From contig JALVEM010000263.1 in assembly GCA_027030825.1 (NCBI GenBank), forward strand, positions 1 to 27,323: a stretch of 27,323 nt of DNA, given 5' to 3'. Source of the DNA: Thiohalobacter sp. GTDB taxonomy: Bacteria > Pseudomonadota > Gammaproteobacteria > Thiohalobacterales > Thiohalobacteraceae. The translations under genes and the position numbers were made by a program. The notes beneath the pieces are model-generated. The model had not been told where the DNA came from. It searched no databases and was given only the letters and a program-made list of their open reading frames with translations. Position 1 is the first letter of the stretch, and every line of letters begins with the position of its first letter. This document shows positions 7,493 through 20,842 of the stretch, in pieces.

Positions 7493-8959
7493 TCAACGGC
7501 TGCGCAGTTTCCTTCCCTGAACGGGGTACACGAGTGACAGCAGCTCGATCGATGCCTGACGATTCACCATCAGACTGACCAAAGGATAAGCCAGCATACC
7601 GGACAACACCAACAGCAGGAACCGTGCCATCACCTCCACTTGCTGCCCGAAAAGCATCCTCTCCGCGACAATCGCAACATACATGACAATTCCTGACATT
7701 AACGAGGGGGCCACCGCAGCAGCGAACTCGCCGATACCTATGCCGATCAGGGGGATCGAACGCATCAACATGACTGCAAACGCCAGCGGGTATGCAATGC
7801 ACCAGGCGACGACCACGCCCGTCAGCCCCCATCTCGTTCCGACAAGCACGGCCGACGGCACGATGATGCAGGCCAGCGAAAGATTGACGACATTGACATC
7901 CGGCCTGCCGACCGCCTTCACGGCCGTGGGGACATTGGCGCCCAGCATCTTCAGTGGCATGACCAGTGCCAGCAGCTGAATCGGCAGAACCACCTCTTGC
8001 CACTTGGCACCGAGCAACACGCTCACAGCCTCCGGTGCAACGGCCGATATGCCAAAGAACACGGGAACGGCAAAAACGGATATCAGACGCGTTGCCTTGA
8101 GAAAGGCGCTTCTGAAGCGTTCGCGATCATCCTGCAATGCGGAGAATGCCGGCAGACTCACCTGCGTCATGATCGCATTGAGCTTCTGCGAGGGGAGTGC
8201 TGCAAGCTGTCTGGCCACGGAATACAGTCCAAGTATCTCGTTGCCCAGTATGCGTCCTATGATGAAGATGTCCGATTCGGTATAGAGGTACCACAAGAGG
8301 CGTTCCAGCGTCACCCAGCCCCCGAACTTCGCGATTCCGAGGACACGCCCAAGTCGCGGGGTCGGGACCCTCAAATAGGGATACAGCAGATTGAGACCGA
8401 GCATGCGAACGAACATGCGCAGCAGATTTCCGTAGACGAGCGACCAGACCCCCTTCCCTACGAGCGCCAGATAGAGCGTGAACAGGCTGCCGACAATCGT
8501 CGATACCAGCTCGACAATCGCTCTGCGATTGAATTCCATACGCTTCTCGAGCATGGACTGGGGCACGATGGAAAGCGCCAGGAGAAAGAACTGCAACCCT
8601 ATCACGCGAACCACATCGATCAACCGTGGTTCACCGAAAAAGGACGCCAGCGGGATCGCAGCATGGTAGAGAACCACATAAAGCAGACCGTTGACGACGA
8701 GCGCCAGCGTATAGGCCTCTCGAACCAGCCCCTGATCGAGATCGCGTTTCTGGATCAGGGCGGCCCCCATGCCCATCTCGGCAAGCAGGTTGAGGAAGGT
8801 GATCACGGCCATCGCCATGGCCATCAATCCGTAATCCTCCGGCGCCAGCAGGCGTATGACGACGATCGTGATCACCCAGCTCGCGAGCTGGGACAACAGG
8901 CGGGCAGCCGCCATCCACTTCAGGGCGCTGACCACGCGCTGTCCCAGGCGATCATGCAT
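7493..8959 (-). CDS. wzx: Wzx/PST-family polysaccharide flippase
   Basis: VIRLLAPEDYGLMAMA, EMGMGAALIQ and GNEILGLYSVA motifs; about 12-14 hydrophobic segments. Start moved to ATG 8959 (MHDRLGQ...), which overlaps the upstream stop by 8 bp. Confidence 0.9.
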   Translation of the reverse strand: MHDRLGQRVVSALKWMAAARLLSQLASWVITIVVIRLLAPEDYGLMAMAMAVITFLNLLAEMGMGAALIQKRDLDQGLVREAYTLALVVNGLLYVVLYHAAIPLASFFGEPRLIDVVRVIGLQFFLLALSIVPQSMLEKRMEFNRRAIVELVSTIVGSLFTLYLALVGKGVWSLVYGNLLRMFVRMLGLNLLYPYLRVPTPRLGRVLGIAKFGGWVTLERLLWYLYTESDIFIIGRILGNEILGLYSVARQLAALPSQKLNAIMTQVSLPAFSALQDDRERFRSAFLKATRLISVFAVPVFFGISAVAPEAVSVLLGAKWQEVVLPIQLLALVMPLKMLGANVPTAVKAVGRPDVNVVNLSLACIIVPSAVLVGTRWGLTGVVVAWCIAYPLAFAVMLMRSIPLIGIGIGEFAAAVAPSLMSGIVMYVAIVAERMLFGQQVEVMARFLLLVLSGMLAYPLVSLMVNRQASIELLSLVYPVQGRKLRSR

Positions 8960-15986: not shown

Positions 15987-16631
15987 CTAGAACACGCTCT
16001 CGGGTATGACCACGATGTCGCCGGGCATCAGCTTGATGTTCTGCGAAACATCGCCCTCGTTGAGGAGATCGTCGAGTCTGACCCTGATCTCCACGTCCTT
16101 GCCGTCCACCTTCCTGATCACCTTGGTGCGATTGCCGGCGGCAAACTCGGACAGACCACCGGCCAGAATCACCGCATCCAGTATGGTGATGTTCTCGCGA
16201 TACGGAATGGCCTGCGGCTGGACCGCCTGGCCCACGATGCGTATCTGCTGGTCATATCGACCAACGAACCCGGTAACTGTAACAGTCACGATGGGATGCT
16301 TGACATACTTGGCGAGGCGCTGCTCCAGTTCCCGGGCGAGCTCGGTGGGTGTCTTGCCGCTCGCCTTGAGATCCTCGACCAGAGGCGTCGTGATGCGCCC
16401 GTCCGGACGAACCGGCACGGTGACATTCAGGTCCTTGTTGTTCCACACGAAAATCTGCAGGCTGTCGCCCGGACCGATCCGATACTCCGGCGCCTCCGTT
16501 TCCGAAACGGACGCTGTCGGCACCGACGGCGTCCTGCCGGCAGTGCTGCAGCCTGCAAGCCAGACCGCCGACAGAACCACTGTCATGAAATGACGGAAAC
16601 GGGCGACATGCGCTGATTTGCGGATTTTCAA
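15987..16631 (-). CDS. wza: Polysaccharide export lipoprotein, XrtA/PEP-CTERM system (TIGR03027-like, OPX/Wza family)
   Basis: Lipobox LAGC; EYRIGPGDSLQIFVW, VRPDGRITTPL, SLBB domain and PGDIVVIPES. Probable TTG start at 16631 behind a GAGGAG RBS (the track's 16673 has none). Confidence 0.92.
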   Translation of the reverse strand: MKIRKSAHVARFRHFMTVVLSAVWLAGCSTAGRTPSVPTASVSETEAPEYRIGPGDSLQIFVWNNKDLNVTVPVRPDGRITTPLVEDLKASGKTPTELARELEQRLAKYVKHPIVTVTVTGFVGRYDQQIRIVGQAVQPQAIPYRENITILDAVILAGGLSEFAAGNRTKVIRKVDGKDVEIRVRLDDLLNEGDVSQNIKLMPGDIVVIPESVF

Positions 16632-16700
16632 CTTGTTCTCTCCTCGGAAATGAAGTGGAAACGGCTTTTCCATGACCTCGGCGGAAAATGCATGACGGGG

Positions 16701-16717
16701 TGTCAGAAATTCTTACA
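16701..16717. promoter_or_regulatory. Enhancer-like box 1, TGTCAG-AAATT-CTTACA (TGTCA-N7-TTACA)
   Basis: Imperfect palindrome with the same half-sites and spacing as the box at 17023-17039; it fits the TGT-Nx-ACA style of sigma54 activator sites. Confidence 0.55.
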
Positions 16718-16776
16718 GCGTGATGTCTGGCTGGCGATCGTTCACGGGTATGCTCATTGCCATGGTCGGGTATCGA

Positions 16777-16792
16777 TGGCATCCAGCATGCG
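16777..16792 (+). promoter_or_regulatory. Putative sigma54 (-24/-12) promoter P1, TGGCATCCAGCATGCG
   Basis: Exact GG-N10-GC spacing with a TGGCA -24 element, 60 bp downstream of box 1. No obvious ORF follows directly. Confidence 0.4.
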
Positions 16793-16909
16793 CATACCGG
16801 TCGATCCTGCCCCCGTCTACAGAACCTCCCTTGAACCGACTGCAGTACCCGGCGCACTGCAGACTGGCATGGCGGACGGCAACTTGCGACAGTTGCGACC
16901 TTAATTACT

Positions 16910-16929
16910 GCATATTATCCATAATATGC
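16910..16929. repeat. Perfect AT-rich inverted repeat GCATATTAT-CC-ATAATATGC
   Basis: 9-bp arms with a 2-bp spacer, seen directly in the divergent intergenic region. Confidence 0.8.
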
Positions 16930-17022
16930 TCGTTACCCGTAAGTTTCCAGCCCCACATCCAAATCATGGAGATGCCCATACCGATCCTGGATTTCCGATC
17001 GGGCCGGAGCATCGACCGGTCA

Positions 17023-17039
17023 TGTCACTTTTTTTTACA
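17023..17039. promoter_or_regulatory. Enhancer-like box 2, TGTCAC-TTTTT-TTTACA (probable PrsR site / PEP-CTERM box)
   Basis: TGTCA-N7-TTACA lies 75 bp upstream of a good sigma54 promoter for a PEP-CTERM gene. Proteobacterial PEP-CTERM genes are known to carry an upstream sigma54-associated motif. Confidence 0.65.
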
Positions 17040-17113
17040 ATCACAGCAAACCGACCACTGCCCCCTTCCGAAACACAAAACATTTCTCTTTTCTTTCATA
17101 TGGTTGTAACACA

Positions 17114-17129
17114 TGGCATCATCCCTGCA
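17114..17129 (+). promoter_or_regulatory. sigma54 (-24/-12) promoter P2 of the PEP-CTERM gene, TGGCATCATCCCTGCA
   Basis: GG-N10-GC with TGGCA and TGCA elements; predicted +1 near 17140, about 73 nt before the ATG. Confidence 0.75.
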
Positions 17130-17212
17130 TATTATCAGGCACAGAATCCGGCATTTCATTGGCTGAAATCGATAACCAGAAGGCCCGGACCCGGGCCGAG
17201 GAGTGGATGAAG

Positions 17213-17983
17213 ATGAAAATTTCCAGAACGACCCTGGCAATCGCACTGTCCGGCACACTGGCGCTCGCCAGCAGTGCCATCCAGGCGACCCCCATCAGCG
17301 GGGGATCCCTCCAGAGCCTGCTGGACGGCATCACGCTGGGGGGTACCTCCTCCATCGATGTGAACGCCGACCAGTACGGTCCCGACGCGGTCTGGACCCA
17401 GACCGCATCCGGCATCTCGACGGCACGCATCCTCTTCGAGATCGCCGGCTACAAGGATGTCAACAGCTTCGGCATCTATGACGCCCGGGATCCATCCCGC
17501 CGGCTCGAGATCTTCTCCGGGCCCAACGGGCCGGGTTCAGTCTCCCTGGTTCTGGATCTCGGCAGCAACGACAAGGGGGCCATCACCTTCTCCAGCACGA
17601 TCCTGCCCATCGGCACGGATACCGCCTCCTTCACCACGGACATGTTCGGGTTCTATCTGGAGACGCCCAACAACATCTGGTATTCGGAAGATCATCGCAA
17701 TGCCGATGGCAAGGATCACATGGTGACCTTCGCCGGCAACAATTCCGACCAGATCAGCGTCCCCGGATTCTTCGGCCTGCCCACGGGCTACAATCCCTGG
17801 ACCGACAAGGAGTTCATCCTGGCCTGGGAAGATCTGCCGGCCTCGAGCTCCGATGACGACTATGACGACTTCGTGGTGCTGGTGAGCAATGTCATGAGCG
17901 TGCCTGAACCGGGTACCCTGGCAATCGCCGGCGCCGGTCTGCTTGCATTCGGGTTCGGCATGCGCCTGCGGCGGCGCAGCTGA
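17213..17983 (+). CDS. PEP-CTERM sorting-domain protein with a DUF4114-like acidic C-terminal domain
   Basis: GAGGAG RBS at 17198-17203; signal peptide MKISRTTLAIALSGTLALASSAIQA; WEDLP...DDDYDDFVV; VPEP at 17900-17911 + TM helix + RLRRRS. Confidence 0.93.
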   Translation: MKISRTTLAIALSGTLALASSAIQATPISGGSLQSLLDGITLGGTSSIDVNADQYGPDAVWTQTASGISTARILFEIAGYKDVNSFGIYDARDPSRRLEIFSGPNGPGSVSLVLDLGSNDKGAITFSSTILPIGTDTASFTTDMFGFYLETPNNIWYSEDHRNADGKDHMVTFAGNNSDQISVPGFFGLPTGYNPWTDKEFILAWEDLPASSSDDDYDDFVVLVSNVMSVPEPGTLAIAGAGLLAFGFGMRLRRRS

Positions 17984-18085: not shown

Positions 18086-20842
18086 TCATGGCGCTTCTGC
18101 CAACCCCTGCTTCACGCCACCCTTCCGGGCGCGACTCAGCGCATCCAGCGCCTCGTTGTAATGTCTCAGGATTTCGGGATCCTTGCCGGACGAAAGGCGC
18201 ACCGCCCTCGCCAGTTCCTCCACCGCCTCCTCGAGGCGCCCCCGACGATACAGAATCCAGCCATAGGTGTCGGCCACGTCCGGCGCATCCGGAAGCAACC
18301 GATAGGCACGCCTCGCCAGCTCGAGACTTCCCGGCTGCGAAAGCTCTTCCCGTATCCAGGCAAGGTTGTTGAGCGCCCTCGGGTCATTCGGATGCCGCTT
18401 CAGGATACGCGCATATTCCGACTCGGCCAGCCTCAGCCTGCCCATGGCCAGTGCATCCTCGGCCAGCAGATGGCGCACGGCCACGTCGTCCGGGTGCAAT
18501 TTCAACCAACCCTGAAGAAGCTCCAACCGCGACCTGTCGCCCTGGGCCTTCATGACCTCGTGCAGGGCCAGCAACAGCCGTCTTTCCGGCTTTTTCCGCC
18601 AGGCGTTCTCGAGCACCCGACGCGCCTGCTGCCTTTCTCCCTGCCACTGCAGATAACTCGCCTCGAAAATCCTGGTCTCGACTGCATCAGGGTGGTGACG
18701 CTTGAGCCTGTCCAGCCACCGCCCGGCCGCGCCGGGATCGTTGCGCCGAAAGGCAAGCTGCAACATGCCGCCGAGCGCCTCCGGATGCGAGGGAGCCTTT
18801 TCCAGTATCCTTCCGAAGGCCTTTTCGGCCTCTTCGAGATGCCCGGAAATCATGTACGCCCGACCGAGCTCACTGAGCACATCGGCCTGATCCAGCCCCA
18901 GATGAATCGCTTCCTCCAGCGCAGCGGCCGCATCCTCTCCCTTGCCCGACTCGAGCAGCGCCCGCCCCTTCACGAACAGGGCGCCGGCCCGATCCCGGGC
19001 AAGCACAGCGAGTCTCTGGGCCCGGTCTGCCGCCTCCAGCGCGCAGCGAACATTCCGTACCGCAAGACACAGACGAGCCAGCACCAGCCTGGCCTGATAC
19101 GATCGGGGTGCGATGTCGACCGCCTGATTCGCCAGATCCAGGGCGCGAGCGACATCGCCCTGCTGCATTTCGAGACGGGCCAGGGAGATCACCACCTCCA
19201 CGTTTTCCGGATTCATGGACAGTATGTTCTGATAGATGCGCCTGGCCTCGGAGAATCTGCCCGCCATTTCCTCGAGACGTGCGAGATTGATCCTTGGAGA
19301 GACGTCTTCGGGATTCATCTCCGATGCCCGCGCAAAGGCCCCCCTCGCCTCGTCGAACCGACCCTGCAACGCATGAAGCATGCCTTCCAGATTGTGGTAG
19401 ATGGCAGGATTCCCGCCAGCGTCTCGAAACGCCTCCAGTCTTTTTCGAGCCTGCCCCAGTTTGCCCCCGGCCAGCAGATTCACGATCTCCATGGCCTGCC
19501 CGGCCAGCCGCCCTTCCCTGCTCTGCAGATTGCCCAGGATACGCGCGGCAGCCTCTGCATCCCCGGACAGCAGATAGGCCCGGGAGAGTTCGATCGTGCT
19601 TTTCGCGTCGGACGGTGTGCGGGTCTCGAGCTCGCGTATGTACTGCCTGGCTTCCGCATAAAGCCCCATCCCGAGACTGGCCTTGACCAGCAAGCGGTAG
19701 ACCCACGGATCGTCGACCCCCTTGTTCACCAGAGGATCGAGCACCTCGACAACGCCTTCGGGCTGATCCAGAAGCATGCGAACAGAGGCGATCAGACGTG
19801 TGGCAACCGGATTCCCGGGCTGTTTCCGGAGTACCAGCTCGAGATGCCGATTGGCCTGCTCGAGATTTCCCCTGGCCAGGGCAACCGCGCCGGCGAGGAG
19901 ATTGACGCGAGGATTCCCGGGCAGCTCGCTCAGCAGCGGGCGCAACGATTCTTCCGCTGCCTCGAGCCTGCCCTGTGAGTATTCCATCAGGGCATGGAGA
20001 TAGCGGGTGATGTGCTGTTTCGGGAAGTGCGCCTTCAGCCAGCGGACCTGCTCGCGGGCTTCCTCCTGCCTGCCGGTCTTCAGCAGAACCTGGATGAATC
20101 CGCTGCGTATCATCACCTGGAGGACGTCTCGGTCCCGGTCATGGAACCGTACCGCCTTCCGGTAGGCCTCGATGGCCGCCTCGTCCTCTCCCCTGAGAGC
20201 CAGCAATTCCGCCTTCTCGAACCACACGCGCGCATCGTCCGCCGCCGACTTCTCGAGTTCCCGTATCAGCTTCTCTGCCGCTTCGAGCCGCCCAGTGTTC
20301 CGATAGACACGTGCCAGTCCCAGACGGGGCTCGACGAGCCGGGGCGCTAGCCTGGCCGCCTCGCGATATTCCGAGAGCGCCCTGTCGAGATCGGACATGG
20401 CGAGCGCCGCATGTCCACGCAGGGTCAGAATCCTGCTCCTGGCCACCGGATCCCTGCCCCAGGCATCCGGCGACAGCGCCTCGAGGACTCTGGTATAGCG
20501 CCCCTGGGCGATCCACGCCTTGCCGAGCAGCAGTCTCGTCTCGACATCGTCGAGACCGAGGGAAATCGCCTTCCGAATCTCCTCTTCGGCGAGATTGGCA
20601 TTGCCGAGCGCCAGCTCGGCTCGTGCGAGCGACAGATGCGCGGCTGCATCCCGGGGACTTTGCGCGAGCAGATGCTTGACCTCGATCCTGACCAGACGCC
20701 AGTCACCGGCGGATTCGGCCTGCCTGATCCTGTCCCACCGCTCCTGCGGCGAGAGCGACTCCCGGCAACCGGAGACGAGCAGAACCAGTCCCAGCAGCGA
20801 GACGAACAGCCATTCCGCACTTCTCCCGGAAAGACTCACCAC
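18086..20842 (-). CDS. prsT: XrtA/PEP-CTERM system TPR-repeat lipoprotein PrsT (TIGR02917-like)
   Basis: Lipobox VSGC; about 918 aa of tandem TPRs; family-like motifs WRLVRIEVKHLL, ALNNLAWI and ADTYGWILYRRG; GGAG RBS + GTG start. Confidence 0.88.
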   Translation of the reverse strand: MVSLSGRSAEWLFVSLLGLVLLVSGCRESLSPQERWDRIRQAESAGDWRLVRIEVKHLLAQSPRDAAAHLSLARAELALGNANLAEEEIRKAISLGLDDVETRLLLGKAWIAQGRYTRVLEALSPDAWGRDPVARSRILTLRGHAALAMSDLDRALSEYREAARLAPRLVEPRLGLARVYRNTGRLEAAEKLIRELEKSAADDARVWFEKAELLALRGEDEAAIEAYRKAVRFHDRDRDVLQVMIRSGFIQVLLKTGRQEEAREQVRWLKAHFPKQHITRYLHALMEYSQGRLEAAEESLRPLLSELPGNPRVNLLAGAVALARGNLEQANRHLELVLRKQPGNPVATRLIASVRMLLDQPEGVVEVLDPLVNKGVDDPWVYRLLVKASLGMGLYAEARQYIRELETRTPSDAKSTIELSRAYLLSGDAEAAARILGNLQSREGRLAGQAMEIVNLLAGGKLGQARKRLEAFRDAGGNPAIYHNLEGMLHALQGRFDEARGAFARASEMNPEDVSPRINLARLEEMAGRFSEARRIYQNILSMNPENVEVVISLARLEMQQGDVARALDLANQAVDIAPRSYQARLVLARLCLAVRNVRCALEAADRAQRLAVLARDRAGALFVKGRALLESGKGEDAAAALEEAIHLGLDQADVLSELGRAYMISGHLEEAEKAFGRILEKAPSHPEALGGMLQLAFRRNDPGAAGRWLDRLKRHHPDAVETRIFEASYLQWQGERQQARRVLENAWRKKPERRLLLALHEVMKAQGDRSRLELLQGWLKLHPDDVAVRHLLAEDALAMGRLRLAESEYARILKRHPNDPRALNNLAWIREELSQPGSLELARRAYRLLPDAPDVADTYGWILYRRGRLEEAVEELARAVRLSSGKDPEILRHYNEALDALSRARKGGVKQGLAEAP

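Follow-up and report, generated by a model that had tools for sequence, protein, structure and literature searches.

Most proteobacterial PEP-CTERM genes were described by Haft et al. (2006; PMC1569441) as single-gene units that follow long non-coding regions, and two motifs of 17 nt were recognized in those regions. Motif 1, which carries TTTACA at its 3' end and is sometimes repeated, was predicted to be the site of PrsR, an NtrC-like response regulator; motif 2 is a sigma-54 motif with GG at -24 and GC at -12. The spacer from the most 3' copy of motif 1 to motif 2 measured 62.8 +/- 10.6 nt (range 32-92), and motif 2 stood on average 71 nt from the start codon (range 23-221; PMC1569441). In Aquincola tertiaricarbonis RN12, the PEP-CTERM gene beside prsT is RpoN-dependent, with a mapped start behind TGGCAC/CTGCTT and a predicted enhancer upstream (PMC9850573). 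For pepA of Zoogloea resiniphila MMB, genetic dependence on PrsK-PrsR has been reported (Gao et al. 2018, as summarized in PMC9012009).

The window analysed here, a stretch of 27,323 nucleotides on contig C263, is an XrtA/PEP-CTERM exopolysaccharide (EPS) locus. The genome is fragmented (574 contigs, 2.5 Mb, 66% GC), and the public runs that contain it are labelled hydrothermal vent metagenome; a look for RNA runs of this DNA found none listed. An intergenic region of 575 bp separates the divergent starts of a wza-like gene, the first of a minus-strand EPS/exosortase operon, and of the PEP-CTERM gene under study (Table 1). For the wza-like gene, a start at TTG (16631) is backed by full-length alignment to a same-genus orthologue. 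For the PEP-CTERM gene, either ATG 17207 or ATG 17213 could serve as the start codon, the latter being better spaced from the ribosome site. Its product gave the best PF07589 match of the genome (E 9.8e-6), matched PF13448 as well, and ends in a tail of VPEP, a hydrophobic helix, and RLRRRS. The interval 16500-17300 was identical (zero differences) in an independent 9.8-kb contig from another run, so misassembly does not account for the arrangement. Among the DNA contigs covering the region only two SNPs were found, both outside the motifs; this is too little variation for footprinting. Elsewhere in the window, a consensus-grade sigma-54 site, TGGCACGGTTCCTGCT, was observed on the minus strand at 7614-7629, within the 3'-terminal part of the flippase gene. 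The gene for the PEP-CTERM-associated outer-membrane protein TIGR03016 starts 138 nt beyond this site, which has no motif-1 box beside it.

Table 1. Features of the intergenic region and its neighbouring genes (positions in the window)
Feature	Position	Strand	Basis or remark
wza-like XrtA/PEP-CTERM polysaccharide export gene	15987..16631	-	TIGR03027 246 bits, cut-off 180
Genes in order: wza-like, chain-length determinant, tyrosine autokinase, exosortase A, sulfotransferase	from 16631 downwards	-	
Further genes: glycosyltransferases, flippase, TIGR03016 outer-membrane protein, O-glycosylation ligase		-	
Box 1, TGTCAGAAATTCTTACA, distal motif 1, predicted PrsR enhancer site	16701..16717	+	exact TGTCA-N7-TTACA match
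P1, TGGCATCCAGCATGCG, weak sigma-54-like site	16777..16792	+	GG-N10-GC spacing; 59 nt after box 1
Box 2, TGTCACTTTTTTTTACA, proximal motif 1, predicted PrsR enhancer site	17023..17039	+	exact TGTCA-N7-TTACA match
Spacer from box 2 to P2, 74 nt	17040..17113	+	promoter-proximal half AT-rich
P2, TGGCATCATCCCTGCA, predicted sigma-54 promoter (motif 2)	17114..17129	+	GG-N10-GC spacing; 74 nt after box 2
Predicted 5' leader	17141..17206	+	read from sequence, with a predicted start site
PEP-CTERM gene (secreted DUF4114 protein with PEP-CTERM sorting tail)	17207..17983	+	translation, Pfam
PrsT, TPR lipoprotein of the PEP-CTERM regulatory system	18086..20842	-	TIGR02917 503.8 bits, cut-off 312

Set against the motifs of Haft and colleagues, the promoter-proximal part of the region is conventional. 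The PEP-CTERM gene is a single-gene unit after a long non-coding region, motif 1 is repeated, and PrsK, PrsR, and PrsT are all encoded. Box 2 shows the 17-nt length and the terminal TTTACA of motif 1, P2 has the GG and GC elements, and the start codon follows P2 at 77 nt (ATG 17207) or 83 nt (ATG 17213). Judged by sequence, box 2 together with P2 is the published PEP-CTERM box. It adds one more unremarkable case to a described class of control site and is no new operator. The initial annotation had proposed a precise candidate PrsR operator; as a predicted site this holds, given the match to motif 1, but its novelty does not, the motif having been described by Haft et al. (2006; PMC1569441). 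The unlike part is the distal copy. Box 1 ends in CTTACA, five of the six bases of TTTACA, has its own weak sigma-54-like site behind it, and lies 70 bp from the divergent EPS export gene; from one motif-1 copy to the other there are 322 nt, a wider spacing than in the repeats seen in relatives (53-277 nt).

The likeness to the Aquincola and Zoogloea pepA genes consists in a PEP-CTERM gene beside prsT with an RpoN-type -24/-12 promoter and a predicted enhancer upstream. Those promoters were experimentally tested, whereas the one here is predicted from the genome of an uncultured hydrothermal-vent bacterium, and prsT is convergent with the PEP-CTERM gene here but downstream of it in Aquincola and Zoogloea. 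NtrC-class activators, such as NtrC at glnAp2, use several dyad-like sites upstream of a sigma-54 promoter, which aid oligomer assembly, and can act by looping at a distance. Our locus likewise has dyad-like sites ahead of a sigma-54 promoter, here predicted to serve a response-regulator AAA+ activator; it differs from glnAp2 in the site (TGTCA-N7-TTACA), the regulator (PrsR), and the signal, and its two sites may be used cooperatively.

The two boxes and the two GG-N10-GC sites lie where the initial annotation had placed them. Exact copies of TGTCA-N7-TTACA are rare: only three were found on both strands of the 2.5-Mb genome, two of them in this intergenic region, at -506 (box 1) and -184 (box 2) relative to the PEP-CTERM gene. 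At the local base composition, about 0.001 copies would be expected by chance in the 575-bp region, and two boxes arose in none of 200,000 shuffles. Scored with a matrix made from six sites of related genomes only, box 1 was the best site of the genome (26.1 bits), box 2 ranked fourth among all of its 17-mers, and four of the eight genome sites at 20 bits or more lay upstream of PEP-CTERM genes. The 3' variant seen in box 1, TCTTACA, was also present before PEP-CTERM genes on contigs C71 and C210 (there in the distal copy) and before a metagenome orthologue (L048). The third exact box lies on contig C469 (L043, 424-531), with a consensus sigma-54 site 75 nt downstream, then about 370 nt without a convincing ORF, then an ORF of 294+ aa without a Pfam match. 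It may denote a member of the PrsR regulon that is not a PEP-CTERM gene, or a long leader or RNA.

We searched 22 genomes of the family for a composite pattern (box, 55-85 nt, TGGCA-N8-GC), with the reversed pattern as control. Nine matches were obtained, and none to the control. All six matches in relatives had a PEP-CTERM gene, encoding a signal peptide and a PEP-CTERM-type tail, 41-165 nt downstream; one of these, in genome G007, is the closest orthologue of the target gene (51% identity). In relatives, a PEP-CTERM ORF on the same strand follows at least 13 exact boxes. Within the same genome, high-scoring modules of box and sigma-54 site stand before PEP-CTERM genes on C210 (two genes) and C71. 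The family consensus is TGTCA, four to five variable bases, a T-run, and TTACA, the last always towards the promoter. The six of six composite matches thus uphold the claim that the box is an enhancer-type site tied to PEP-CTERM genes and sigma-54. The motif is enriched at other PEP-CTERM promoters, as the initial annotation had suggested checking, both in this genome and in the family, because such modules precede PEP-CTERM genes in relatives and on C210 and C71. The regulators are also encoded: PrsR (TIGR02915) and PrsK (TIGR02916) each exceeded the cut-off twice in the genome, and RpoN (TIGR02395) once.

Several features of the wider regulon were observed in passing. Two PrsK/PrsR pairs above curated cut-offs are distributed over contigs C25, C316, and C102. 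The PEP-CTERM tails of the genome come in two styles, one VPEP (that of this window) and several VPVP-x-A-x-WLF; these may represent two sorting and regulatory sets running in parallel, or result from contamination of the bin, which stands at 6%. On contig C78 (L095, 1283-1465), two boxes 87 nt apart and a sigma-54-like site, TGGTTC...TTGCA, precede a gene for a 340-aa secreted protein without a PEP-CTERM tail and without a Pfam match, which adjoins a gene whose product combines TPR and beta-barrel parts and gives a weak Slam-type TPR match. In relatives G006 and G009 (L081, L093, L099), the sigma-54 sites behind the boxes read TGGAAC-N5-(T/C)TGCA and not TGGCAC; TGGAAC is a lineage-specific variant of the -24 element.

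The distal box has a counterpart in the G007 orthologue, where boxes lie at -442 and -165, the latter corresponding to box 2 in type and distance, and a sigma-54 site at -85. At the nucleotide level, nothing in the intergenic regions of the window and G007 aligns except the motifs, and no sigma-54 site follows the distal box of G007. Repeats of motif 1 are common in the family, with spacings of 53 nt (G001), 87 nt (C78), 99 nt (C210), 108 nt (G003 and G011), 131 nt (G006), 145 nt (G002), and 277 nt (G007). Of the metagenome orthologues of the PEP-CTERM protein (33-46% identity), most carry a consensus sigma-54 promoter between -67 and -170; the group is uninformative on the distal box, because motif 1 has drifted in it (GTC-N-...-TTACA variants). 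Box 1 was read as a real extra site because it is rare, has the top matrix score, and has a distal counterpart in G007, and because motif-1 repeats are common. By these comparisons it is very probably a true second copy of motif 1 and an additional predicted PrsR site.

What box 1 does is a separate matter. We regard as probable, with some reserve, an arrangement in which P2 is the one working sigma-54 promoter, in standard PEP-CTERM-box architecture, box 1 is an auxiliary distal enhancer of P2, and P1 is fortuitous. The initial annotation had instead described the whole module, enhancer and promoter, as present twice. On such a reading box 1 would serve P1 as a genuine sigma-54 promoter beside P2, and the product would be either an alternative leader of about 410 nt for the PEP-CTERM gene or a non-coding RNA in its own right, about 220 nt long. 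The box 1-P1 spacer is near the mean spacer of Haft and colleagues, the -24 element of P1 is a perfect TGGCAT, and its -12 element retains TGC; a site of this quality would fall in the 32-92 nt after a box by chance with a frequency of only about 0.6-1.6% (1.6% by the promoter matrix below). Folding of the 16803-17045 RNA is somewhat more stable than that of shuffled sequences (z = -2.3), and the module on C469 likewise precedes a leader of about 370 nt. As a promoter, though, P1 is poor. It reached 20/22 on the consensus score, a level shared by 488 sites of the genome, as against 22/22 for P2, reached by 23. On a promoter matrix derived from thirteen PEP-CTERM promoters of other genomes P1 scored 4.8 bits, equalled or exceeded by 1350 genome sites, while P2 scored 11.0, the other modules of the genome 8-18, and verified modules overall 8-23. 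The last 35 nt of its spacer are 46% AT, unlike all gene-linked modules (54-83% in relatives, and 71% at P2 in this 66% GC genome). Unlike motif 2 of Haft and colleagues, P1 lies 414 nt from the ATG, above their maximum of 221 nt, with no credible gene nearer. Downstream of it no plus-strand terminator was found; small ORFs there and on C469 yielded no convincing candidate and no Pfam match, and neither the region nor C469 had an Rfam match at E <=1. No counterpart of P1 follows the distal box of G007 or other distal boxes, and the sole similar case, a distal 'promoter' in G003 (18/22), was rejected as a parallel, being lost in the close relative G011. P1 thus departs from the modules in -24/-12 strength, spacer composition, proximity of a gene (within about 220 nt), and conservation, and we consider a second promoter unlikely; on sequence grounds, a function for P1 is doubtful and a fortuitous match most likely. 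Of the claimed duplication, the part concerning the box stands and the part concerning the promoter is doubtful. It is a good deal less probable still that box 1 itself is a non-functional relic or a chance match, left for instance by the loss or rearrangement of an earlier PEP-CTERM gene, with only box 2 of consequence. Its CTTACA end, its unusual distance from P2 (397 nt upstream), and the short imperfect repeats of the region, which hint at past rearrangement, would fit such a history. The chance expectation and the top rank on an independent matrix are against it, as is the retention of a distal box in G007 despite surrounding DNA that has diverged beyond alignment, and no PEP-CTERM coding remnant is present between the two modules. 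An origin of the first module by duplication was likewise considered and dismissed, the short imperfect repeats in question (D1, D3) being at the estimated chance level.

The remaining alternative concerns the other side of the intergenic region: box 1 might couple the EPS/exosortase operon to PrsR, by activating or by hindering minus-strand transcription, so that glycan and protein are controlled together. The initial annotation had raised such shared control of the wza-like operon, and the geometry lends it some appeal. Box 1 is much closer to the wza-like gene than to the PEP-CTERM gene (506 bp); it lies between the sole upstream sigma-70-like minus-strand site (16949-16921) and the wza start, where occlusion is geometrically possible; and it is partly dyad-symmetric, its reverse strand still scoring 16 bits. 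Against this, no usable minus-strand sigma-54 site was found in the region, the best GG-N10-GC sites there scoring 12/22 (16678-16663, 22 nt from the box) and 14/22 (16988-16973), and the asymmetric TTACA end of box 1 faces the plus-strand PEP-CTERM gene, as in all verified modules. None of nine wza orthologues of the family has a box (<=1 mismatch) within about 1.4 kb upstream, a weak comparison because wza is not the first gene there but is preceded by other co-oriented genes; a search for close relatives with the Wza protein returned only distant metagenome-assembled genomes, at <=60% identity. As summarized in PMC9012009, prsK and prsR mutants of Zoogloea resiniphila retained EPS synthesis and secretion, and RpoN of Aquincola was required for flocs and not for EPS synthesis, rpoN mutants still secreting it. 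Co-control is disfavoured because EPS synthesis in both organisms is, on that account, independent of the system. We therefore did not retain the claim of shared control, and coupling through box 1 seems to us very improbable. A variant, scarcely better placed, would place P1, as a further promoter, under PrsR; transcription from it would cross the leader of the wza-like operon in antisense and continue through the second module, PrsR thus switching on the sorted protein while tuning the EPS/exosortase operon through antisense transcription or occupancy of the leader DNA. If true, this would be a direct regulatory link between the glycan and its protein substrate, one absent from the published mutant work.

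Between the two modules the region holds other sequence elements. A perfect 20-bp palindrome, GCATATTAT-CC-ATAATATGC, was observed midway between them at 16908-16929, where it overlaps the -10 element of the sigma-70-like minus-strand site. A second, exact copy of the left arm, the 12-mer CTGCATATTATC, is found at 17125-17136, over the P2 -12 element and start region; among the repeats of the region, only this exact 12-mer was significant. All three genomic copies of the 9-mer GCATATTAT fall within this intergenic region. In form the palindrome resembles the operator of a dimeric regulator specific to this locus, which might repress P2 and the divergent operon. Just to its left, at 16882-16899, is a tandem direct repeat, ACTTGCGAC-AGTTGCGAC, of which the exact arrangement is unique in the genome.

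Returning to the arrangement with a single working promoter at P2, the order of events would be as follows: PrsK phosphorylates PrsR, the NtrC-class response regulator, and dimers of phosphorylated PrsR bind box 2 and probably also box 1. PrsR would then oligomerize and reach the closed sigma-54 polymerase complex at P2 across the AT-rich, probably bent, spacer (no IHF consensus was found in it at <=1 mismatch), and ATP hydrolysis by PrsR would open P2. Transcription from near 17140 would give a monocistronic mRNA for the DUF4114/PEP-CTERM protein. The predicted leader of about 66-72 nt contains a GC hairpin, GGCCCGG-AC-CCGGGCC (17182-17197), just before the ribosome site, with the Shine-Dalgarno sequence GAGGAG at 17198-17203. 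The protein would finally be sorted by exosortase A, a product of the divergent operon. Box 1, in the same orientation as box 2, would most likely serve as an auxiliary distal enhancer of P2, either raising the local concentration of the activator or aiding oligomer assembly by looping. Counted against this account are the position of box 1, 397 nt upstream of P2 and so beyond the repeat spacings of relatives, of which the 277 nt of G007 is the widest; the low chance expectation (about 1-2%) of a sigma-54-like site at the canonical distance behind box 1; and, in respect of which protein binds, the approximately 12 sigma-54 activators and two PrsR paralogues of the genome.

The general picture of PEP-CTERM gene control is unchanged by these findings. 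What they add to it is modest: a wide separation (322 nt) of the enhancer copies, retained in one orthologue, and a weak sigma-54-like site behind the distal copy. Because the literature that could be searched yielded no experiment on the binding of PrsR to DNA, the clean sites available at the family level (TGTCA-N4-5-T-rich-TTACA, facing the promoter) may be useful as substrates for a test of PrsR binding. For the organism itself, an uncultured bacterium of hydrothermal vents, the analysis places its DUF4114/PEP-CTERM protein in the predicted PrsK/PrsR/sigma-54 regulon.
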